Of a stretch of 64,000 nt of DNA, positions 1-59,259 are shown piece by piece. Numbering within the stretch: the first letter of the stretch is position 1; the number at the start of each line of letters is the position of its first letter. Source of the stretch: an uncultured archaeon (GTDB lineage Archaea > Thermoplasmatota > Thermoplasmata > Thermoplasmatales > Thermoplasmataceae); assembly GCA_000965745.1 (NCBI GenBank), contig CP009479.1:1504001-1568000 (forward strand), read 5' to 3'. The notes beneath the pieces were generated by a model, which was given only the letters and a program-made list of their open reading frames with translations, ran no database searches and was not told the DNA's origin. The position numbers were made by a program, and so were the translations under genes.

Positions 1-354
1 AGTCAATACCTGAGAGACAACAAGCATAAACTCTACAATTTTGTAGCGGGTGCCCTTGCAGATAGTATTATCATCAACTCTGCCAATGTTGAGGCAAGAA
101 TCGATAAGAGCAAGGGAAAAGCTGTATTGAGAAAGGATTTCAACAGATACTTTGAGGATAAACTCAGAAATGGCTCTAGGATAGGAAAAATAGACATCTA
201 CCACAGTGACTCAAGGAATTTTAGCGGGTTGCAGTTAGTGGACATCTTAGCGTGGTCCGTGTTTCAAAGATTCAACAATGCTGATCTTTCCTATTTTGAT
301 TTGATAGATACCGTGAAATTTCCACAATATATGGTGGAACTATGGAAGAAGTGA
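1..354 (+). CDS. DUF3800-family protein (5'-truncated by window edge)
   Basis: Frame 1 is open from base 1 (SQYLRDNKHKLYNFVAG...) into the 127..354 ORF. The C-terminal DSxxxxGLQLVDILAW motif is typical of DUF3800. Confidence 0.75.
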   Translation, partial: SQYLRDNKHKLYNFVAGALADSIIINSANVEARIDKSKGKAVLRKDFNRYFEDKLRNGSRIGKIDIYHSDSRNFSGLQLVDILAWSVFQRFNNADLSYFDLIDTVKFPQYMVELWKK

Positions 355-357
355 GCC

Positions 358-413
358 AGAGCCGATTGGAACGTTTAAACGTCCACCTCAAGGTAGGCTT
401 GTCCAATCGGTCT
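358..413. ncRNA. Candidate structured RNA next to DUF3800 gene
   Basis: GCCGATTGGA (361-370) pairs with TCCAATCGGT (402-411). The stem encloses palindrome ACGTTTAAACGT (371-382) and a second hairpin (383-397). Confidence 0.5.
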
Positions 414-525
414 TACCTGTAAGTAAACATTGTTAACAATGTTATAAATGTTTACACCGTACTCACTATCCGAGACACACCTGCGGGGTGCACCCGGTTC
501 AAACATACGATGGTCTTAATTATAG

Positions 526-1068
526 TTAAATACCTAACTTTCTATACTTATTATACTCCTCCGGAATGAACTTCCTGATCCAGCCTATCGAGAAGGAATT
601 GAACGGTGACAGTTCCTGGAAACTCTTAGAAATGAGGGATTTCATGTGATGTTCCGATGCAATGAAATTTCTCGATACAACTCTCTTTATGCTCTTCCAT
701 ATGAATTCAATTGGGTTGAGATCAGGCGAGTATGGCGGCAGGAAAATGAGTTCTATTCTGAGTTCTAGGGATAATTCCATCACCTTTGCTGCATGATGTG
801 ATGCAAAATTATCCAGCACCACCTTGATCTTCTTTTCAGGATTGTTCCTCCTTATCTCAACCAGAAACGCGCAGATATCCTCCTTCCTTGATCGCTCCAT
901 GAAGCTGCATGTACTTGTGCCATTGATTGCATAGAACCCTATGCAATTGATTCTGTACTTAGCTGTGTTCTTTATCTTCTCTGACCTTTTGAAGGACCAC
1001 ATCCTTACAGTGTTGGATGTGTTCTGTGGAGATGACTCATCCAGGAATCCTATGATCTCATCATCCAT
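526..1068 (-). CDS. IS630 transposase, DDE catalytic part
   Basis: Motifs FLDES, VVLDNFASH and FLPPYSPDLNPIEFIW. Confidence 0.92.
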   Translation of the reverse strand: MDDEIIGFLDESSPQNTSNTVRMWSFKRSEKIKNTAKYRINCIGFYAINGTSTCSFMERSRKEDICAFLVEIRRNNPEKKIKVVLDNFASHHAAKVMELSLELRIELIFLPPYSPDLNPIEFIWKSIKRVVSRNFIASEHHMKSLISKSFQELSPFNSFSIGWIRKFIPEEYNKYRKLGI

Positions 1069-1079
1069 GCTGATCTGGC

Positions 1080-1562
1080 CTAAGTTTTTTTTAGCCTTTC
1101 CTCAGCGTCCTTTGGACGCCTGAAGTCATGCGGATATGGCTTTGAGTACTTCATGCCCATCTGCCTGAGGATCGTGCGTACATGCTTCTGTGAGAACCTG
1201 ATTCCGAATCTCTTCTCAATGAGTTTCTGTACCTCCTCTGTGGTCCAGTCATCCCTTTCCTGCAATATTGTCCTGAGGCGTTCTTTCTTCTCCCCGGAGA
1301 GCTTAGCGGGCTTGCCGCCTGCAAATCTAGGTGCAAGGCCGTCATATCCATCCTCATTCCACCGGTCCTGCCACTGGTACCCGACCATCTTGTACACTCC
1401 GACCTTGGATGCAGCCTCTTCCACTGAATCTCCGTTGTAACGGTGCCTGACAAAGTACAGGCGCTTGAGGATCCGAGTGTCCTTCTCCAGTGTCTTGATA
1501 CGCTTTTCAAGCTCTTCCACACTCATTTTTCTGTCAATTGGTATGGTCTCCTTCCTGCCCAT
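1080..1562 (-). CDS. IS630 transposase, HTH part (probably joined to the DDE part by -1 frameshift)
   Basis: Motifs W..RWNEDGYDGL and WTTEEV...FGIRFS. An A8C run at 1084-1092 lies just before the stop. Confidence 0.9.
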   Translation of the reverse strand: MGRKETIPIDRKMSVEELEKRIKTLEKDTRILKRLYFVRHRYNGDSVEEAASKVGVYKMVGYQWQDRWNEDGYDGLAPRFAGGKPAKLSGEKKERLRTILQERDDWTTEEVQKLIEKRFGIRFSQKHVRTILRQMGMKYSKPYPHDFRRPKDAEERLKKT

Positions 1563-1639
1563 GGTTGTATAATACTAATACGTATTAAAAGTATGGTATT
1601 TAACTATAATTAGTATGTAAGGGACGCCTAAGGGTGGGA

Positions 1640-1930
1640 CTACATAGAGGGGTGGTTACCGTCTCGCTTTGTCGGTTTGAGTCCCGTCCTTATGTGTCTT
1701 CCGCATTTATGGCAGCGAATTCGTGAGACGTTCCCCGTGTATTTCCATTCATGGCCGCATCCCTTGCATTCGATAAGAATGCCCGGTATTTCTTCCCTTA
1801 ACGATGTGTCCAGCTTGTAGAGGCGCATCCTCAGATATGATTCTATATCAATAGACGGGTTGCTCTGTTTTATACGCCTAAGAACAGCTTCCTCAACAAC
1901 CAACTTGATCTCTTTTTTCGTCTCTATCAC
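1640..1930 (-). CDS. Small Zn-ribbon protein with RHH-like N-terminus
   Basis: CKGC...CHKC pairs; GGAGGTG SD; overlaps the upstream gene. Confidence 0.65.
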   Translation of the reverse strand: MIETKKEIKLVVEEAVLRRIKQSNPSIDIESYLRMRLYKLDTSLREEIPGILIECKGCGHEWKYTGNVSRIRCHKCGRHIRTGLKPTKRDGNHPSM

Positions 1931-2142
1931 CTCCCCTCGACATTTTCTTTATGGCATTCTCTAGTTCCAGTTTCATCGTGACAACCGCACAAGCAATAGA
2001 CAACAGCAGTTTCCTTGACCCCGAAATATGTGCCAAGATCATTGAGTGCTGCTCCCTGGCACCTTTCATGTTTTTCGTTCCGGCAATCCCTGAAAATATA
2101 CGGGATGTCTTTATTGAATAATGAGGGTGAATCATGCTTCAT
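1927..2142 (-). CDS. Small Cys/His-rich hypothetical protein
   Basis: CRNEKHERC...CLCGCH motif; overlaps both neighbours. Confidence 0.55.
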   Translation of the reverse strand: MKHDSPSLFNKDIPYIFRDCRNEKHERCQGAALNDLGTYFGVKETAVVYCLCGCHDETGTRECHKENVEGR

Positions 2143-2536
2143 CGTATTGCCCTCCCTTGCTCAGCCGATCCCTTATCTCCTTACGCTGTTCATCTGTGAG
2201 GGAATCCCATCTTTTCCGAGCTGCGAGCTTCCTGTTATATTCTTTGCTCAGATAGCCCCGGTATGGCAACCTTGACTTCAGTTCATCGGGCATGGATAAC
2301 CAGTACTTATGGCGTGTAGGTTTGGCCATTTCACACTTTGGATCGTCCTCAATACTTGTCCTTATATCTATCAGTATGTCGAGCGGGCATTTCGGGGCAG
2401 AACATATCTCGAACCTCGAACAGTAAGACATTGATTCAAGCGATAACGACTCCTTATCATTGGTGAAATCGTTTCTTTTTGTCTCATTTGTCCGGTCTCT
2501 CAGAATTGAAGGGGTCTCACCTGATTGCTTACTCAC
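2132..2536 (-). CDS. Cys-rich hypothetical protein
   Basis: CSRFEICSAPKCPLD...C cluster; operon-like overlaps. Confidence 0.6.
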   Translation of the reverse strand: MSKQSGETPSILRDRTNETKRNDFTNDKESLSLESMSYCSRFEICSAPKCPLDILIDIRTSIEDDPKCEMAKPTRHKYWLSMPDELKSRLPYRGYLSKEYNRKLAARKRWDSLTDEQRKEIRDRLSKGGQYDEA

Positions 2537-2718
2537 TGTCTTACTCTCCTTGCTACTCTTTGCAGAATCTTCTTTGAAAATTCTGGAAGTCTCCGCACGA
2601 TCTCTTTCCTCAATTCTCTCAGTTTCGTTCTTTCCACCTTCTTATTTTTATCCTGATTCTCTCCTCCAGTTCCTGGGCCCTCGATGCAAAAACAAAATAT
2701 GCGAACATGAGGGCTCAA
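2533..2718 (-). CDS. Small basic hypothetical protein
   Basis: Fills the operon gap with a GTGA overlap. Confidence 0.4.
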   Translation of the reverse strand: MSPHVRIFCFCIEGPGTGGENQDKNKKVERTKLRELRKEIVRRLPEFSKKILQRVARRVRQ

Positions 2719-2731
2719 AGTTGTAGATTGG

Positions 2732-2932
2732 TCATTTCATCAACTCCTTTTTGTCCAGTTCCTCAAGAATCAGCAACACACGGTCTTTTCTAATGGCCCC
2801 GGAGCCGTAAATCCCATCATAGTAAAGGTACAGGTTATGTTTGTTGCCGTAAAATTCCTGTGTTCTTTCGGCTATGCTTCTCTCGACCCTGGAACCGTCC
2901 GGGGATTTGTGGAAGATAGCGATGAATTTCAT
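2732..2932 (-). CDS. Hypothetical protein
   Basis: ATGA overlap with the helicase stop; GGGGGTG SD. Confidence 0.55.
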   Translation of the reverse strand: MKFIAIFHKSPDGSRVERSIAERTQEFYGNKHNLYLYYDGIYGSGAIRKDRVLLILEELDKKELMK

Positions 2933-4767
2933 TGCGGATCACCCCCTTTTAGCTTTATTTTACACTGTGCGATTAGCTCCTTGGTCTTTGGGCTCTCAGG
3001 ATAATACTCTACAATATCGCCGGCTTTGTAGACTGTCATGTTGAAGTAAAACTGTTTCAGGACAATGTAGGAGCGGTTAGGAGATGAATTCTTACCCGTG
3101 TTTTTTTGTTTTTCAGGGGAAAAGTTTCCATTTCTAATGTCAGTACTGTCAGTTTTATTCTGTGAGCCGGATTCCCTAGGCTTGCTACCACTTACATTAG
3201 CTTTTTTCGATTTTTTAATGTCAGGGTCTAATGTCAGCTTCCCGGTGCCGGATTCCCTAGGATCAGCTTGCGTACTGACATTACTGACATTAACTTCATA
3301 ACTTTTTTCCCCGCTGTCCAGTTTAGTTATTCTTTTTGTCCTGTTTCCGTCCGAGAGGGTCTCGTACAAAAAGCCCAGTTCAAGGAGCGTAGGAGATAGT
3401 TCTCTCAGGTTCCGACCCAGTCTCCTTTCGTCCTTCGGCATGTGTTTCCTCTGCGGCTCGGACATCAATTCATAAAGAATGTCGAACAATTCTGATGTTG
3501 TGCCTCTCCAGACGTCCCTATCCGCCATGAGGGTCCGGATTCCTTGAAGTATGGTAGTGTCCTTTGCTACATCCACGATCTCATTGTGCTTGGCTTCAGT
3601 ATATGCATTGAAGAATGACATGGCAGGGAGCCCCATGGCCCTGATTCCACACTCGGCCCATATAACGAAGTCCGCCATTCTCGGCAATCTCCCCTTATGT
3701 TCCGATTCTACCTCAGGATAGAGCTTGATCGCCTTCGGGATAACTGATAGAATGAATCCCCTCACTTTCGGTATGAGCATGTCCGCCTTGCTTCTAATCT
3801 CTGCGTCAGTGAGCCTTGCGACCTCGGACATCACGCCTAACTCGATGGGACATTCACGATCCATAAAGTCCGGTTTGTATCCCGGCCTGTTGATCCCATT
3901 CATAATGATCGGTCGCTTCAGCTTGAGGATCACCTCTCCCATGTTGGTGTAAAGCTCCCTGGTCCTGAAGCCCTGTCCTGTTGTCAGTCTGCAAATAATA
4001 TCTGAAATGTAGTCCGGCATGATTGTATTCACATTATCGAAGGCCAGCATGCCCTGGTGCATGGCTGATATCGAAAGGTCCCTTTCGTCATGCTTGAGGG
4101 ATTGGCTGTTAGCCCCGCTTGGATCGAATAGTTCCCGCTTTGTCTCGGTGCAAGAAGTCTTGCCGGCCCCGTGTCCGCCGGTAACAACTTCCATGGCATG
4201 AGGAATGCCGGGAATGAAGCGGGAAAAATCAAGGCCCATTGAAAGGATTTTGCCGTTCTCTGTGAGATTCCACAGATTGACAAGTGCCTGGTGGTCCTCT
4301 AGCTTTCCGTCCTTGATGGGAGCTTCGAGCATGCCGGCATATCTTGCCGTGTAGGGCTGGTCCGGTAATTTGAGACTGAATCCCGAATCTGTGATGAAAT
4401 AAACCTTACCGTCCGGCCTTATAGGGTCGTAGATAAATCCCGCTTCATGCTTGGCGACTCTTACCCCTAAGTCCCTGATGCTCTTTGAAGCAAGATAGCG
4501 GGCATAACGCTTTATGTTGGCTATCTCCTCGCCGTTTGGGAGTTCGCCCAGCCTGGAGTACTTCCTCTCGGTTAAGAGACCCTCGAAATTCCGGCCCTCT
4601 ATCTCCAGTGGTATGTTATCATCCTCAACATAGAATCCCATCCCCTGGGGATTGCTGAAAAATTGGCCTGTCAGGTGATTCAACAACTGGCTCTTGTTGT
4701 CCTTACCCGTTGCCTTCTTCCCTTTCACCTGTTTGTTGATTTTCTGAATGTCCTTATCCGGATTCAT
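2929..4767 (-). CDS. SF3/AAA+-like replicative helicase/ATPase of mobile element
   Basis: Walker A GGHGAGKT, Walker B MLAFDN, RPIIMNGI sensor, DFMDR Arg finger and a C-terminal wHTH-like segment; follows the primase. Confidence 0.75.
   Translation of the reverse strand: MNPDKDIQKINKQVKGKKATGKDNKSQLLNHLTGQFFSNPQGMGFYVEDDNIPLEIEGRNFEGLLTERKYSRLGELPNGEEIANIKRYARYLASKSIRDLGVRVAKHEAGFIYDPIRPDGKVYFITDSGFSLKLPDQPYTARYAGMLEAPIKDGKLEDHQALVNLWNLTENGKILSMGLDFSRFIPGIPHAMEVVTGGHGAGKTSCTETKRELFDPSGANSQSLKHDERDLSISAMHQGMLAFDNVNTIMPDYISDIICRLTTGQGFRTRELYTNMGEVILKLKRPIIMNGINRPGYKPDFMDRECPIELGVMSEVARLTDAEIRSKADMLIPKVRGFILSVIPKAIKLYPEVESEHKGRLPRMADFVIWAECGIRAMGLPAMSFFNAYTEAKHNEIVDVAKDTTILQGIRTLMADRDVWRGTTSELFDILYELMSEPQRKHMPKDERRLGRNLRELSPTLLELGFLYETLSDGNRTKRITKLDSGEKSYEVNVSNVSTQADPRESGTGKLTLDPDIKKSKKANVSGSKPRESGSQNKTDSTDIRNGNFSPEKQKNTGKNSSPNRSYIVLKQFYFNMTVYKAGDIVEYYPESPKTKELIAQCKIKLKGGDPQ
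3135..3292. repeat. Iteron-like array (putative replication origin) inside helicase gene
   Basis: TAATGTCAG at 3135, 3216 and 3229; inverted at 3275 and 3284; 1-mismatch copies at 3144 and 3191. A 15-bp direct repeat GCCGGATTCCCTAGG occurs at 3166 and 3247. Confidence 0.7.
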
Positions 4768-5704
4768 TAACTATGACCTCTAAAAATTCCATGAGTGCGT
4801 TAGGTCCCGCTACCTTTCCCTTCCCGTCCTTGAGCCTTGATATTGATGCATTATAGGCATTGGAAACAATCCAGGGCCTGTACTGTCCTTGTCCGGTACG
4901 CTTTATCAGTTCGCCGATAATGTATAGAAGGTCATTCTCTGTTCCACCTGATCCGGCGATATATCCGCTTATCCTGAGCATGAAGTTATGGAGCTTGCCC
5001 GTTCCGTTCTGCCAATACGGCGTAAGGACCTCTATTATCGTTTCAATGTCTTTTATTCCGTCCCCTATGTGTCTCGGCAATACCGAGCCTTCATATCCCG
5101 GCTTAACTGAATCCTTGAATAGCTTATTCTGGTCCATCTCCATCAGCGTGGAATAATTCTCAAACACATTGCCGGTAAGAAGGAAAAATCTCCCATAATC
5201 GTAAACCTCGATGGAATGTCCCCTTAGCTCGACGGCGGACCCTAGTCCCTGGGGCTTGGCTCCTTTAACAACGATGTGAACACCATTGCCGGAAATTGAA
5301 ATCTCGGTATAGCTCTGAATCTCATTGATAAGGTCAAGTACCCAATCCTCAATTTTGCCGTCATGGATCACGTTATCAAAATCAAGCCCGGTATAGTCAT
5401 GATTAAAAAAGAAGCTCAGATACTCGGCATTTCTGACGCTAAAAAAATTCGTCCATGTCCTGGGGTCGTTGCTCTTGGCCGGATAGCCATTTATTTGGTA
5501 TGGATATTTTTCATATTTTCCCTTGCCCTGATTCCAAACGGCTTTGGCAATACCCCACTGTTTTTTTAACCTCATTTCAAGCGGGACCGAGAAATTGCGT
5601 TTCGCATAGCCCGAGACTGTGAACGGTATTTTTATATTGCGTGTTGCATTATTACTTCGACTCGAATCTGCCGATGAGAAGTCACTTTCTCTCTTTTTGT
5701 TCAT
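4754..5704 (-). CDS. Primase-polymerase (AEP superfamily, NrS-1-like)
   Basis: Motifs DPRTWTNF, GLDFD, YTEISISGNGVH and IEVYDYGRFF. The start was moved to ATG 5704 (ATGA overlap). Confidence 0.8.
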   Translation of the reverse strand: MNKKRESDFSSADSSRSNNATRNIKIPFTVSGYAKRNFSVPLEMRLKKQWGIAKAVWNQGKGKYEKYPYQINGYPAKSNDPRTWTNFFSVRNAEYLSFFFNHDYTGLDFDNVIHDGKIEDWVLDLINEIQSYTEISISGNGVHIVVKGAKPQGLGSAVELRGHSIEVYDYGRFFLLTGNVFENYSTLMEMDQNKLFKDSVKPGYEGSVLPRHIGDGIKDIETIIEVLTPYWQNGTGKLHNFMLRISGYIAGSGGTENDLLYIIGELIKRTGQGQYRPWIVSNAYNASISRLKDGKGKVAGPNALMEFLEVIVNESG

Positions 5705-5865
5705 GACGTGGGTGCCTCCATCCTTAGCAGGCGCTCCCACGTCTGCATTTTGCTCAGATAGTCATCAATGTCCAGTCTATCGGGCTCCGACAGGATCAGT
5801 GTCTTGACCGGATCAGGAAACTTGATCGCCTTTGCCTTGAGGTCCTTAATATCGACTTCAGTCAT
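5701..5865 (-). CDS. Small hypothetical protein (54 aa, not in ORF track)
   Basis: MTEVDIKDLKAKAIKFPDPVKTLILSEPDRLDIDDYLSKMQTWERLLRMEAPTS; overlaps both neighbours. Confidence 0.65.
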   Translation of the reverse strand: MTEVDIKDLKAKAIKFPDPVKTLILSEPDRLDIDDYLSKMQTWERLLRMEAPTS

Positions 5866-6031
5866 TGTCTAGCACCGTGGGAAAAACCCTTATTGAGCCA
5901 TCCGCCTGTAATTCAACCGTCAGATCGGAGTACCTGCCAATCCCCTGGGCCTTAACCCACTCAGAGGGCAGCGTCATCTGGAAGCTGCCCTGCACCTGCA
6001 TGGCCCTCCTTTTCCATCTTATAGGGTTCAC
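5858..6031 (-). CDS. AbrB/MazE/SpoVT-like DNA-binding protein (57 aa, not in ORF track)
   Basis: RRAMQVQGSFQMTLPSEWVKAQGI...LTVELQADGSIRVFP; GTG start. Confidence 0.7.
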   Translation of the reverse strand: MNPIRWKRRAMQVQGSFQMTLPSEWVKAQGIGRYSDLTVELQADGSIRVFPTVLDND

Positions 6032-6104
6032 ACTATGATTATCGATTACGAGGTATTGATCGTCTTTTTAGATTCACGGAGCCACTATATAAATACATAT
6101 ATAC

Positions 6105-6137
6105 AACCATATGATTAACCATATGATTAACCATATG
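6105..6137. repeat. 12-bp tandem repeat in divergent promoter region
   Basis: AACCATATGATT x2.75 (6105, 6117, 6129) next to the AT-rich TATA-like stretch 6087-6103. Confidence 0.85.
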
Positions 6138-7075
6138 TGGCTGACTTTTTCCCAAGGGGCGTGACCGGTCTCATAATCTACAGGGGGCTGAGGTTCGCGA
6201 GGAAAGCCGACTTTCTAGAATTGTGCGATTATCTCAGGTACGTAGGAAAGAAGCTCTCCAAGCCTGAACGGTCGTTTTACAGTCAAAGAAGGAACAGGAC
6301 TGTTAACTATGCCCTATCCAAGCTCTCAAGTTATAACTTAGTAAAATGGGATGAAAGAGCCAAGAGATACGAATGCAAGGTTGATTATGAAGCCTATCTC
6401 AAGTTCCTTAGGGAGACTGCTGATGAATTGTATCAGAGGGGAAAAAGAGGAATTGAGCACAGCATCATGAAGCTTATAGAAGATTACGTAGACAGAGGGA
6501 TGAAGGATCCATCAAGAAATGTTGGGATCTATCATTCTGCAAGGAGTTCCATGGAACCCGAGTTCACACAAGAAGAAAGGGATCTCTTGGACTGCAACGG
6601 CTGGAACAAATACAACTCGATAGGTGAGGTCTACATGGACGACCTACTGCAGCTTGATCTTCTTGAAAAATTAATTCTCGAAAGAGGATGGAAAGCCCAA
6701 GCAGTGAGCGTCTCAATGTCTGAGATCGTCATGGACCAAGACAAAGAGAGGAAATGGATCAATGAAAAACTAGGGTTGGAGGGCCTACGTCAAGAACACC
6801 TCAAACTCAGGGCATCCGGCCCAATAAGAATCGATTTAGAAGCGGAACCAGAAGCATGGGATATTCTGACGGCCGAAGGATTGGCAGCAAGACGGGTGTT
6901 CAAATTAGAAGGATGGGACACAGAGAAAGCTCAAAGGAGGTACGAGTTATTTGGAGACTCCGTGTTTCATAGAATGGTTACAACAAAACCCTGGTGGTTG
7001 CGAACAGCAAATGAGAATGAAGACATTGAAAATATCTACTGGGGAGAAAAAGAGAAAAGGTCGAAGGATAAGTAA
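6137..7075 (+). CDS. Hypothetical protein, possible N-terminal winged helix
   Basis: 312-aa ORF. TVNYALSKLSSYNLVKWDERAKRYE resembles a wHTH recognition helix and wing. No integrase motifs seen. Confidence 0.65.
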   Translation: MADFFPRGVTGLIIYRGLRFARKADFLELCDYLRYVGKKLSKPERSFYSQRRNRTVNYALSKLSSYNLVKWDERAKRYECKVDYEAYLKFLRETADELYQRGKRGIEHSIMKLIEDYVDRGMKDPSRNVGIYHSARSSMEPEFTQEERDLLDCNGWNKYNSIGEVYMDDLLQLDLLEKLILERGWKAQAVSVSMSEIVMDQDKERKWINEKLGLEGLRQEHLKLRASGPIRIDLEAEPEAWDILTAEGLAARRVFKLEGWDTEKAQRRYELFGDSVFHRMVTTKPWWLRTANENEDIENIYWGEKEKRSKDK

Positions 7076-7164
7076 CATCATAGTTATTTAAAGTTGACTA
7101 TCACGGGTATATACTATTCATCAGTTTAGAGAGTCAAATATAGGGGTTTAAACCTAAATTGGTA

Positions 7165-7236
7165 TGGACCGGCGGGGATTTGAACCCCGGACCTCTTCCA
7201 TGCCAAGGAAGCGATCTACCTCTGATCTACCGGCCC
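7165..7236 (-). tRNA. tRNA-Ala(GGC)
   Basis: GGGCCGG/CCGGTCC-A acceptor with G3:U70; anticodon arm CTTCC-TTGGCAT-GGAAG; GGTTCAAATCC T arm. Confidence 0.96.
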
Positions 7237-55502: not shown

Positions 55503-55757
55503 ATGGCAAGACGAAAAAACAACAGCAACAATCTGGCAGAGGCATTCGTTTCGTGGATGTCATTCAACGCGGCATACAGAATTTTCGGACTGGCTATGGT
55601 GATTCTTGGGCTATCATTCTACCTCGCCTGGTCCATACTTTACAACACCTGGGCCGACCCCGGGCTGTATTCGGTTACGGTTATCCTGGTTGTGTTCGGG
55701 ATACTTTCACTTCTCCTGGCCGGTGAGAAGGAGAGGAATCCAGGAAAGCAGAGATAG
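55503..55757 (+). CDS. Small two-TM membrane protein
   Basis: Two hydrophobic helices around W.DPGLYS. Confidence 0.65.
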   Translation: MARRKNNSNNLAEAFVSWMSFNAAYRIFGLAMVILGLSFYLAWSILYNTWADPGLYSVTVILVVFGILSLLLAGEKERNPGKQR

Positions 55758-55759
55758 GG

Positions 55760-57163
55760 TTATTCTCCGGCATCTATAATATCAGATTCAAGTTTGGAAC
55801 CCAATATTCTTGTTTTTTTGAGTCTCCCGTTTTCGACAAACAGGCATTCAGAATAAGGGCTGTTTCTTCCGCCGGAAAGGTCCTCAGCATCGAGGTCGCC
55901 AAAAGCCTGGAGGCCGAACCTGTTCAACTCTGCCCTCCCCATCCCTCTGCTCCTGAAGATGAACACCGAACTGCTGTTTTCAGCAATGACATTTGAAAGA
56001 TGGTTTCTTGAGAGATCATCTGGATTTTGTGTTACACATATCACCGAGGCACGGTAATGTCTTGAATGCCTTATCATTCTCGAAAGCATCTCCAGCGAAT
56101 TTTTATTTGCCAGCACCAGATGAGCCTCGTCTATGAGAATCATCTTTCTTCTATTGGGATTCTCAGCCATTGCATTGTATATTCTCCCGAGAAGGGCAAT
56201 CATCTTCCTTGAAGAGTCATCATCCAACAGGTTGCTGATCTTGTATATTTCCACATCCACGTTTCCGGAGCCATTTTCTTCATGCTCGCTTTCCCTGTCC
56301 AGGTGGGGAATGCCCGAATCTGCATTTAGTGCTACTACTTTGCAAGATCCAGGAAACATTGAGCAGGCATATTCATCGAGAGGATCCAGAATTGCAATGC
56401 TGTCAACAGAACGTGTCGTTGCGAACCTCATCAGGAGTATTTTAGCGAAGAACGATTTTCCTGATCCCGTCTCTCCGAATATCAGCACGTTGTGGGAATT
56501 CTTGTTAAAAATATCCAGAAAGACTGGTTTTTCCGTGATGTCATCAACCCCAAGAGCAACTCCTCCCGCTTTGGGAACAGGGGTGAACGAAAGTGGGAAA
56601 ATTGAGGATGCTGAATGAGTATCCATCAGGTACGGCTTACCCACATTATCCTTTGGCGACGACATCTCCTTGAGCCTGTTTGTTGAGATATACTCAACGG
56701 GTCGGACGATGAGGCCCATAAGCTTCATCACAGACGAAAATGTAGCAGCACTCTCCCTTAATTTTACTGGATGTTCCGAAGATACCCTGAAGGAAGCAAA
56801 AAGGTTCACCAGAAGTGATCTCCTGGCCCCAATTCTTGAGGACATGTTCTCAAGGTCGTATATCTGGCGGTTCAGCTTCTCGCGTTCGGAGTCCCCCATT
56901 GTCCTGCTGTACCTGATTTCAGACTTTCTGTCTGCGATGTATTTGCCAAGTGTGGATGAGCTGACTTTCTCCGGAACAGGCCTGATTATGAATTTCATCA
57001 GAACAGGAAAGCTGAGAGATTCCAGTAATGGCAGGTAATCTGTCCCACCCCCGTAGTCTGAATCCACGAGAGTAAAAACCTGGTGGTGCTGATCAGTCGT
57101 GTAATACGCTTTCCCAATCTTGAAATTTGTGTTTCTCAACCTTCTACTATCATTCATAAACAT
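55760..57163 (-). CDS. VirB4/HerA-like ATPase (compact)
   Basis: LGVD..T.KPV, NSHNVLIFGETGSGKS, ILDP, LIDEAH and RHY...VTQNPDD. Confidence 0.85.
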   Translation of the reverse strand: MFMNDSRRLRNTNFKIGKAYYTTDQHHQVFTLVDSDYGGGTDYLPLLESLSFPVLMKFIIRPVPEKVSSSTLGKYIADRKSEIRYSRTMGDSEREKLNRQIYDLENMSSRIGARRSLLVNLFASFRVSSEHPVKLRESAATFSSVMKLMGLIVRPVEYISTNRLKEMSSPKDNVGKPYLMDTHSASSIFPLSFTPVPKAGGVALGVDDITEKPVFLDIFNKNSHNVLIFGETGSGKSFFAKILLMRFATTRSVDSIAILDPLDEYACSMFPGSCKVVALNADSGIPHLDRESEHEENGSGNVDVEIYKISNLLDDDSSRKMIALLGRIYNAMAENPNRRKMILIDEAHLVLANKNSLEMLSRMIRHSRHYRASVICVTQNPDDLSRNHLSNVIAENSSSVFIFRSRGMGRAELNRFGLQAFGDLDAEDLSGGRNSPYSECLFVENGRLKKTRILGSKLESDIIDAGE

Positions 57164-57176
57164 ACCTCATATACAA

Positions 57177-57902
57177 TCATGAAAGTGATTCAAGAATCAA
57201 GCTGAGCGTTTTCCCGTCCTCCACAAGTTCGCAGTTCCCCGCAACCCCAGAGAGGGCAGACCTTATCGTATTCAAGTCATCCATGAGGCCTCTGCCCGAA
57301 ATCTCGCTGTTTCTCCCATTCCCCCACACGATGATGAAGGATCTGTAGTAATATTGATCCTCAAACAGATAATCCAGGAATCTGTTGTAATTTTCTGATA
57401 ACCTGTCAGCTTCCTCTACATGATACATTTTGGAGTCCACAGAAAAGGGTATGGCAAGGAAACTGGCCGCCCTTCCCATGGAAGAAAAGGCATTTGAAAC
57501 CGCTTTTTCAAAATCTTTCCTGCTTTCAGGATTCAACGTGTGGACGTCTGCCCCTTTAACCTCAAGGCAGTATCCTTTACTTGCGCCCTTAAGGAAGAAG
57601 TGATTATCATTTACGGCATCCACCTTCACCCCGTTTGGCGGAATCCCGCGATGCGATGAAGCTTTCCAGAGGATGCTCCTTGCCACCAGAGTTCCTATGG
57701 AAGACCCTTTCCTTACAGGAACAAAGAAAACAAGGGCAAAAACCAGTGCAAGCAGAGAGTAAAACAATGATATCTCTGACACCATGGCCGCCAGTGAAAC
57801 AGAAACAAGAATCAGCACAGCATTCCTCGCTTCCAGTCCTGCAATTTTAGGCATGAAAGTGTTTATGTTTGCAGGTATCCTGTTATTGCCCTTACTCCTC
57901 GT
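57177..57902 (-). CDS. PrgI/VirB3-like membrane protein
   Basis: RIPANIN...KIAGL..RN followed by two TM helices and a soluble domain. The start is inferred at ACG 57902 behind a GAGGTG SD. Confidence 0.6.
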   Translation of the reverse strand, partial: TRSKGNNRIPANINTFMPKIAGLEARNAVLILVSVSLAAMVSEISLFYSLLALVFALVFFVPVRKGSSIGTLVARSILWKASSHRGIPPNGVKVDAVNDNHFFLKGASKGYCLEVKGADVHTLNPESRKDFEKAVSNAFSSMGRAASFLAIPFSVDSKMYHVEEADRLSENYNRFLDYLFEDQYYYRSFIIVWGNGRNSEISGRGLMDDLNTIRSALSGVAGNCELVEDGKTLSLILESLS

Positions 57903-58932
57903 ATGAATCCACCTCGAAGCGGTTATATTCAAGATCCCGTGCCAGGGCGAAATCCTGCATCGACGTCTTTTTTGCACGGGAGGCGAAAGTGCCTGATTTT
58001 CCTGCAGTGCCGAACACATCCCCAACTGAATTCTTTACGCTTCCTGACGCAAACTTACCTATTGCCCCCGCAGGACCTGAAACAGAAGATCCCAGAAAAT
58101 CCCCGGTATTCATAAGGGAAGTTGCCGAAGAACTGAGTATCGAGCTGGCGGTAACTAGAAGGTACGGGCTGGATGCGGCCAAGATAATAAATGCAGCCTG
58201 AAGAAGGAAGTTTCCATAGAAAATATGGGCATTATACAGTATTATCAGGATAAAGAAGGGGAGCGCATTTATCTCTATGAAAAGTTTCCAGAATTTGACG
58301 GCAAGGCTATCAAACCCCTTTATAACGAAAAAAAGGGAGAACAGTGGAAGTGTGGACACAAGAAAAATGGCAAGGGCCTGTCTTATTTCAAGAACTGCCA
58401 GGAGCGCTCCTGTTCCGACGAAGTAAAGTGAAAGAAGGAGAAATTCCATGACCTGGAAAAATGGATTTTCAGAGTAGCTTGCCTTGATTTGGGCAACTGA
58501 ATTCGAAACAGACAAGAGTGAATACCAGTCTACGGACCCATAGTTCCATACCTGGAGGAATATGGCCTGAAATATCTTCATTACAAAAATTGAAGTCTGC
58601 AGGGAGAAGAATGACAAGATGACAGCAAAAACGGACCTGTAGAGCAGGGAGGAAGGGAATTGTATTTTCCCCAGTGAGTTAGAAGCCATGAGTGCAAACG
58701 AGCCGGCTAGAAGCAGGGCCCCTGCGATTGTCAGGTATATACTGTTGTAGAGGGCGTTGAAAAATGCCATAAACGAACTATTTGCCGCTATCCCAACGGG
58801 GAATGAGTACTGCGGAGTCAACCCGTAATACACAACGTAATACCAAATGGCAGCAACTAACGCTATGTAGGCATGGTTAATAAGCGAAATAAGTGCTGAA
58901 AGCGTTCCAGGCAGAGTGGAAAGCAACGACAT
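57892..58932 (-). CDS. VirB6/TrbL (CedA/TedA)-like polytopic membrane protein
   Basis: About 7-8 TM segments; R...L....LPL...W.KLF pattern; Gly/Ser-rich tail; sits between the pilin and VirB4. Confidence 0.65.
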   Translation of the reverse strand: MSLLSTLPGTLSALISLINHAYIALVAAIWYYVVYYGLTPQYSFPVGIAANSSFMAFFNALYNSIYLTIAGALLLAGSFALMASNSLGKIQFPSSLLYRSVFAVILSFFSLQTSIFVMKIFQAIFLQVWNYGSVDWYSLLSVSNSVAQIKASYSENPFFQVMEFLLLSLYFVGTGALLAVLEIRQALAIFLVSTLPLFSLFFVIKGFDSLAVKFWKLFIEINALPFFILIILYNAHIFYGNFLLQAAFIILAASSPYLLVTASSILSSSATSLMNTGDFLGSSVSGPAGAIGKFASGSVKNSVGDVFGTAGKSGTFASRAKKTSMQDFALARDLEYNRFEVDSYEE

Positions 58933-58936
58933 TTTT

Positions 58937-59227
58937 CTACGATCCGGAAACTATGAACTTGAAGATTGCATAAAGCGTACCGCTGAGGGCAAGCACATAG
59001 ATCAGTGTACCAATGAATGCATTCTTAAGCCTGATTTTTGCGTCATATCGCCTATCTTCGTCTCCGCTGAAAAAAGAAATCGCGATGGGAACCCACAGAA
59101 GCCCGATTATTACGGCGGAAACAGAAGCCACAACTTCATAGATCCGGTTTACCACACCTGACAGCTGTGAACTAATGACCAAAACGGTATTAGAGAGAAA
59201 ATGAAACTCAATAGCACTTAATACCAT
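58937..59227 (-). CDS. VirB2/TrbC-like conjugative-type pilin
   Basis: Two hydrophobic helices joined by SGDEDRRYDAKIRLKNAFIG. Confidence 0.72.
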   Translation of the reverse strand: MVLSAIEFHFLSNTVLVISSQLSGVVNRIYEVVASVSAVIIGLLWVPIAISFFSGDEDRRYDAKIRLKNAFIGTLIYVLALSGTLYAIFKFIVSGS

Positions 59228-59259
59228 TTTTGAATGATATTAATGTAATATTTAACAAC

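Follow-up and report, generated by a model that had tools for sequence, protein, structure and literature searches.

We analysed a 64,000-nucleotide stretch of an archaeal chromosome (the window; G000:C1:1504001-1568000), for which an earlier note had described four linked minus-strand genes of a type IV secretion system (T4SS). G000 is a single-contig 2.23-Mb genome (99%-complete) whose same-genus relatives are Thermoplasmataceae metagenome-assembled genomes (MAGs). All four open reading frames (ORFs) lie on the minus strand where the note had placed them (Table 1). The pilin and VirB6 genes are separated by 4 nt, gene 3 overlaps the end of the VirB6 gene, and 13 nt lie between gene 3 and the ATPase gene. 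We conclude that they constitute a host-owned minimal T4SS derived from MPF_FATA conjugation systems, a real, vertically inherited, and domesticated machine of Thermoplasmatales and some related Thermoplasmata.

The product of the first gene matched the T4SS_pilin family PF18895 with 28.7 bits (cut-off 26.6) and, weakly, the model NF045849 for pilins of integrative and conjugative elements (ICEs). A variable leader of ~25 aa followed by a helix, a charged loop, and a second helix is conserved across 39 aligned homologues, and this layout and the profile match point to a VirB2-type pilin; searching PDB sequences with the pilin profile retrieved no pilin. An AlphaFold2 (AF2) model of the second protein (pLDDT 81) was compared with 48,161 PDB chains. 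The first-ranked match was DotA (Z 10.0, root-mean-square deviation [rmsd] 4.2, 226 residues aligned) and the second was TrwI/VirB6 of R388 (Z 8.0, rmsd 6.3, 215 aligned), scores that are modest for a helical protein. TrwI/VirB6 also filled the first six rows of a Foldseek search (best E 0.024), and the best seven matches in the Atlas were mostly TrbL/TraJ families (TM 0.42-0.65). Because the PDB ranks agree with Foldseek and the Atlas, we accepted the VirB6 identity despite the modest Z scores, and the model is consistent with a VirB6-family channel. No family from Pfam or NCBIfam matched the alignment of VirB6-like proteins, PF19590 TrbL_3 was found on one close homologue, and residues 50-120 match VirB2 pilins (Z 5.8). 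The VirB2 and VirB6 identities proposed in the earlier note are both borne out.

The most likely start codon of gene 3 is TTG 57932 (251 aa), because a conserved N-terminal PxN motif sits upstream of ATG 57854; a 282-aa call is probably too long. Residues 99-251 superpose on TrwK/VirB4 residues 19-200 (Z 8.8, rmsd 3.0, 148 aligned), and TrwK was the top Foldseek match as well (E 0.0086). Of 34 family genomes, 16 have genes 3 and 4 as a single ORF, and the RpoB tree implies that fusion or fission occurred at least 7 times. The note had guessed that the soluble part of its PrgI-like protein is the missing N-domain of VirB4, and this is correct, given the TrwK match and the natural fusions; a VirB4 N-domain on a protein of its own, TrsD, is already known from pGO1 and Patescibacteria (PMC12102498). 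The N-terminal hairpin is weakly PrgI-like (weak PF12666 matches in 6 of 42 homologues, best E 0.0012), and its two transmembrane segments, position, and fusion to VirB4 are those of a VirB3/PrgI anchor.

The fourth protein carries Walker A at residue 230 and Walker B (DEAH) at 345, and both motifs are intact in all 50 homologues examined. Its best PDB sequence match was VirB4 (4AG5, E 1.7e-27). Among NCBIfam models it scored 99.6 bits with Mbov_0397, 76.4 with CD1110, and 39.2 with CedB, the first two scores falling short of the equivalog cut-offs, which is to be expected when the protein is split. These MPF_FATA ICE models were best in 29 of 29 members (best E 1e-62 vs 1e-15 for CedB), which suggests the VirB4 ATPase of an MPF_FATA-derived T4SS. 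Hence, the PrgI/VirB3-like and VirB4-like identities given earlier stand. So does the remark that the ATPase is unusually short (467 aa) with its N-domain elsewhere, but its shortness is also due to a shrunken inter-Walker insert, which spans 107 residues here and 66-177 in the family against 173-182 where measured outside it.

Table 1. Predicted features of the operon and the candidate coupling ATPase (window positions unless a genome position is given)
Feature	Position	Strand	Basis
Probable VirB2-type pilin, 96 aa, 2 transmembrane segments	58937..59227	-	PF18895 T4SS_pilin, above cut-off
Predicted VirB6/CedA-fold polytopic membrane protein, 346 aa, ~7 transmembrane segments	57892..58932	-	structure comparisons
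Gene 3: PrgI/VirB3-like anchor (2 transmembrane segments) fused to VirB4 N-terminal (TrsD-like) domain, ~251 aa	57177..57932	-	start inferred
Predicted VirB4 ATPase without first N-domain, shortened inter-Walker insert, 467 aa	55760..57163	-	NCBIfam, PDB, motifs
TATA-like box	59249..59255	-	22-28 nt upstream of pilin ATG; sequence inspection
VirD4/TrwB-like soluble ATPase, 666 aa, outside window	G000:C1:1838706-1840706 (L090:7707-9707)	+	PF10412

Distribution and inheritance of the operon

We found the ATPase in 35 of 36 family relatives, essentially as a single copy. The order pilin-VirB6-PrgI/N-domain-VirB4 was seen in every one of the 34 family loci that could be evaluated, and the housekeeping genes on either side were mostly the same as well. 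Irregular loci were those of G036 (ending at a contig edge), G011 (frameshifted throughout), and G029 (short VirB6 call). The VirB6 profile detected 40 of the 41 genomes of the own family, f1, and the single miss is a contig end. Among 301 genomes of the class, it was also found in f5 (6/6), f3 (3/5), f6 (3/7), f12 (6/7), f15 (48/54), and f32 (2/2), and in 0/25, 1/48 (a false hit), 1/25, and 0/20 genomes of four other large families; sampled loci of f12, f15, and f32 have the same gene order. The system therefore spans several Thermoplasmata families, including the cultured Oxyplasma meridianum, and Thermoplasma acidophilum, T. volcanium, and Cuniculiplasma divulgatum are presumably also among the carriers. 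Within the family, it is neither sporadic nor linked to ICE genes.

A concatenated operon tree shared 27-29 of 41 splits with the RpoB tree of 44 genomes (G003 was left out), against a mean of 0.28 and a maximum of 4 after shuffling, and patristic distances agreed with rho 0.86. There was one hard conflict, outside the family (G039 vs G041). The ratio of nonsynonymous to synonymous substitution rates (dN/dS) was 0.05-0.22 in pairs with unsaturated dS, and the operon is under purifying selection. Its G+C content (45.5%, with 46.4% for the genome on average) and its use of tetranucleotides are host-like. An integrase, attachment (att) sites, and sporadic distribution, the marks of a mobile conjugative element, were not found for the operon. 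The domestication that the earlier note had put forward is thus well supported by chromosomal fixation, vertical inheritance, and purifying selection, and we regard the operon as almost certainly a domesticated T4SS.

In a quick site-heterogeneous VirB4 tree with weak deep nodes, 25 Thermoplasmata ATPases formed one group with modest support (SH-aLRT 85), a grouping that may reflect a single capture of the operon. One CPR-like VirB4 row lies outside this group (SH-aLRT 85; sparse sampling), and the VirB4 trees contain no CedB/TedB rows. In genus g24 of family f5 (L079, L081, L082, L316, L317), the operon is split, with the PrgI/N-domain and VirB4 genes after purL and the VirB6 gene elsewhere in the genome. 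A MAG labelled WOR-3 bacterium (L281) has an Aciduliprofundum-like version, which could stem from misbinning of the contig or from a transfer. The Aciduliprofundum-like genome G041 itself (L069) has five tandem genes (160-405 aa) with a pilin domain at the end, upstream of the VirB6 gene and some with glycine-rich linkers, and the counterparts in f4 and f6 are single genes for long proteins of ~600 aa; these proteins are possibly adhesin-bearing minor pilins.

A distant VirD4-like ATPase

Seven relaxase families were searched genome-wide in G000 without a match, in line with the earlier claim that no relaxase is present, but profiles may miss archaeal relaxases, which are known to escape them (PMC4027160). 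The claim that there is no coupling protein holds for the locus but not for the genome. PF10412 matched a 666-aa soluble ATPase with 44 bits (cut-off 20.5), encoded 275 kb from the operon among metabolic genes; hence, the genome-wide check suggested in the note returned no relaxase but one gene resembling a type IV coupling protein (T4CP), and the system is probably not free of a coupling protein. A relaxase together with a linked T4CP, as in conjugative elements, was not found at the operon.

The VirD4-like ATPase is distinct from HerA, its Atlas neighbours are T4CPs, and its tree is in large part congruent with that of RpoB (20/33 splits, rho 0.77). Among the 301 class genomes, 92 have both VirB6 and VirD4, 19 only VirB6, 11 only VirD4, and 179 neither, counts among kin that are not independent events. 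The ATPase is thus retained beside the operon in 92 of 111 operon-bearing genomes, and a control gene next to the operon occurs also in families without both. In family f3 (L066, L067, L072, L077), a VirD4-like paralogue of 672-679 aa overlaps the stop codon of VirB4. From this co-distribution, we propose the VirD4-like ATPase as a candidate coupling protein serving the operon. The f3 loci also have a GINS-like gene after the paralogue and topoisomerase VI genes upstream.

Known relatives and possible cargo

Judged by sequence and parts list, the operon appears to be an MPF_FATA derivative closest to the T4SS of Patescibacteria and not a member of Ced or Ted. The Patescibacteria system (PMC12102498) shares the chromosomal location, an MPF_FATA-derived VirB4, a PF18895 VirB2-like pilin, VirB6, PrgI, a separate VirB4 N-domain protein (TrsD), a T4CP far from virB4, and the lack of a relaxase. 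Unlike there, where PrgI and TrsD are separate and VirB3-VirB4 fusions are absent, PrgI is here fused to the N-domain and often to the whole VirB4, and the operon has no VirB1- or VirB8-like genes. The hosts also differ, being bacterial epibionts there and archaeal and mostly free-living here.

The note had called the operon Ced/Ted-like, which is right for its chromosomal, relaxase-free VirB2/VirB6/VirB4 core but not for membership. The Ced system of Sulfolobales and Desulfurococcales (CedA, CedA1/2, CedB, CedD, CedE; PMC9905601, PMC11823120, bioRxiv 10.1101/2024.09.27.615246) has this core too. It also has a further, VirD4-like ATPase encoded apart from the pilin/VirB6 cluster (here a candidate partner by co-distribution) and, as here, a VirB6 whose N-terminal part resembles pilin. 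However, the 39.2 bits with CedB compare with a cut-off of 700 (NF041017), so the two are not orthologous by score, and a CedB search of 61 genomes from the phylum found none at E 1e-20, although the S. acidocaldarius control matched. The present system also differs in its PrgI/VirB3 anchor (absent according to the Ced literature) and in forming a single operon. Ted of Thermoproteales (TedA, TedB, TedC, TedD; PMC9905601), compared by layout, likewise has pilin, VirB6, and VirB4 in one locus; TedD inside that locus resembles the operonic VirD4 paralogue of f3, and the f3 and f5 pilins with signal-peptide-like leaders resemble TedC. In contrast to Ted, no ParA, Rad50, or HerA gene is linked among conserved neighbours in ~50 loci, VirB4 is split with a PrgI anchor, and the phylum is different. 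Independence from Ced and Ted is thus argued from hidden Markov model (HMM) scores and layout.

The best HMM scores and the order VirB6-VirB3/N-domain-VirB4 are shared with MPF_FATA conjugative systems (TrsC/TrsD/TrsE of pGO1; haloarchaeal plasmids such as NZ_CP083668; PMC4027160), which are mobile with a linked T4CP, whereas the Thermoplasmatales operon is fixed and vertically inherited. The best plasmid matches of the ATPase were mostly haloarchaeal plasmid VirB4s, and a gene 3 homologue precedes VirB4 on a haloarchaeal plasmid, on which a 110-aa gene did not match the pilin profile. Two Micrarchaeota MAGs (L297, L302) have a differently split chromosomal T4SS-like cluster, in which a small gene with two transmembrane segments, one with 7-8, another with two, and the gene of a 370-aa VirB4-like ATPase follow one another.

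Drawing on the models for R388, Ced, and Ted, we propose that the PrgI/N-domain protein would anchor the VirB4 motor beneath the VirB6 channel, and that ATP hydrolysis by VirB4 would extract VirB2 pilins from the membrane to build a short pilus or junction touching a neighbour cell. The unlinked soluble VirD4-like ATPase would couple or pump DNA through the channel. Because no relaxase was recognised, chromosomal DNA is the likeliest cargo, perhaps processed by the host HerA-NurA-Mre11-Rad50 operon (at 912-919 kb in G000) and used in homologous recombination and repair. The operon would then be a functional analogue of Ced and Ted, and the direction of transfer may be import or export. We lean, on balance, towards this transfer of chromosomal DNA between cells. 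It would agree with the archaeal precedents, among them the VirD4-like CedD, essential for import in Sulfolobales, and TedD within the ted locus (PMC11823120), and with the high recombination documented in Ferroplasma populations (PMC2704941). The retained coupling-type ATPase and the failure to find ComEC above cut-off in the G000 genome also fit.

Several observations weigh against DNA as the cargo. Searches for the VirD4-like gene found it neither in family f6 nor in 11 genomes of genera g3, g19, and g20 (a Ferroplasma-like clade, which we take to be Ferroplasma and kin). Both groups keep the operon, and the gene is thus missing exactly in the clade where recombination is best documented. 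The co-occurrence counts come from related genomes, and the conserved neighbours of the operon include no nuclease, ParA, or repair gene. Patescibacteria with the same parts list use their system for epibiotic growth, and the T4CP is dispensable there (PMC12102498). That the domesticated T4SS serves contact and not DNA is an explanation to be reckoned with, if a rather unlikely one. The machine would then act in adhesion or as a bridge between cells, secrete proteins, or exchange nutrients and membrane, roles of the kind proposed for the Patescibacteria systems, which lack a relaxase (PMC12102498). This explanation would account for the equal parts lists (VirB2 pilin, VirB6, PrgI, TrsD, VirB4, distant T4CP, no relaxase), the persistence of the operon where the VirD4-like gene was not found, the pilin genes of f4 and f6 with large extracellular extensions or tandem arrays (five genes in G041), and the shrinking helical insert of the ATPase. 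However, the hosts are mostly free-living and not epibionts, a DNA-coupling-type ATPase is kept in most operon genomes and is operonic in f3, and both archaeal precedents handle DNA, as shown for Ced and proposed for Ted.

We consider it unlikely that the operon is a host-encoded donor or helper machine that exports DNA, including integrated elements without transfer genes, via an unrecognised archaeal relaxase. In its favour, the mobile systems most closely related to it are exporters, with VirB6, the PrgI/N-domain homologue, VirB4, and VirD4 arranged in the same order on a haloarchaeal plasmid. G000 also contains two or more elements that are integrated at tRNA-Ala genes and lack VirB genes, and relaxase profiles are known to miss archaeal members (PMC4027160). 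Yet these elements show no recognised relaxase, and benefit to parasites alone poorly explains strict vertical retention and purifying selection. Far less probable still is a resident or decaying ICE or plasmid remnant without host function, for which one could cite the ancestry from conjugative elements, the patchy occurrence in f6 and absence of matches in most other class families, and broken frames in G011 and G038, though adjoining housekeeping genes are broken there too. The near-universal presence of VirB6 in the family, the fixed site, host-like composition, lack of an integrase, and intact Walker motifs oppose it, and tree congruence, distribution, and dN/dS of at most 0.22 effectively refute it.

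Domesticated archaeal conjugation machines have been described only in Thermoproteota (Ced, Ted), and Beltran et al. 2023 knew no further case. In our literature search, which did not extend to subscription journals, the system was not found beyond passing annotations, and by term search neither the Ced/Ted papers nor a T4SS review from 2025 mention Thermoplasm*. Golyshina et al. 2016 (PMC5155288) annotated 'type IV secretion components' of Cuniculiplasma in one sentence, namely the VirB4 cluster CSP5_1185-1189 and, apart from it, the VirD4-family ATPase CSP5_0791. These are very probably the same system, since the positions fit G032; the pilin and VirB6 were unrecognised there, and distribution, domestication, and DNA transfer were not analysed. 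An E-plasma paper mentions a VirB4. With DNA transfer as the favoured function, DNA exchange in these acidophiles becomes testable on four or five named genes, and what a minimal T4SS requires can be read from the natural variants, in which VirB4 is split or fused, VirD4 is present or lacking, or the insert has shrunk; should the cargo not be DNA, the operon would still be an archaeal counterpart of the Patescibacteria machine. It is conceivable, but we hold it doubtful, that this is a third independent archaeal domestication, captured once early in part of Thermoplasmata as a general route of chromosomal gene flow, with the Ferroplasma-like clade running a three-gene version without the coupling ATPase. 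If true, this would explain how Ferroplasma populations in acid mine drainage recombine and would define the smallest DNA-moving T4SS.

Flanking sequences and integrated elements

A thioesterase/rpiA block lies on one side of the operon and mptD (DHNA), an NTPase gene, and trm1 on the other, which confirms the housekeeping flanks named in the note and adds the NTPase gene. The note had also seen no integrase or att site nearby. Indeed, no integrase or tRNA gene lies near the operon (the closest tRNA gene is ~48 kb off), and a 16-bp direct repeat around a 10-kb stretch of housekeeping genes that includes the operon (window 51697 and 62009) was rejected as an att pair and judged to be due to chance, because essential lipid and tRNA genes lie between the copies. 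An AT-rich box is found upstream of the pilin gene in most family members, at a distance comparable to that of the TATA-like box, and the transcript is probably leaderless. A palindrome upstream of the pilin gene, TTGCCA-N5-TGGCAA, is unique in the genome yet unconserved even within the genus and was rejected as a regulon site. Between the ATPase gene and mptD lies a small convergent gene (window 55503-55757, plus strand) for an 84-aa protein with two transmembrane segments and the conserved motif YxTWxDxGLYS. It is present in 239 of 301 Thermoplasmata genomes irrespective of the operon, and in only 1 of 48 of family f11, and was rejected as a fifth subunit.

Two related elements are integrated at tRNA-Ala genes with 21-bp att repeats (G000:C1:390292-407882 and 602393-625773; L087, L088). 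They encode a tyrosine integrase, a small membrane protein, a P-loop ATPase of 629 or 594 aa, ParA, a resolvase, and Orc1/Cdc6; the parts examined contained no VirB genes and no recognised relaxase, and the two ATPases, considered as T4CPs, are not clear ones. A third related integrase lies just left of the window (G000:C1:1502399-1503712). Together with window positions 1-7236, which hold a split insertion sequence (IS)-like transposase (526-1574), ORFs of 613 and 335 aa, and a tRNA-Ala gene (7165-7236), it probably represents a further integrated or decayed element, ~48 kb from the operon.

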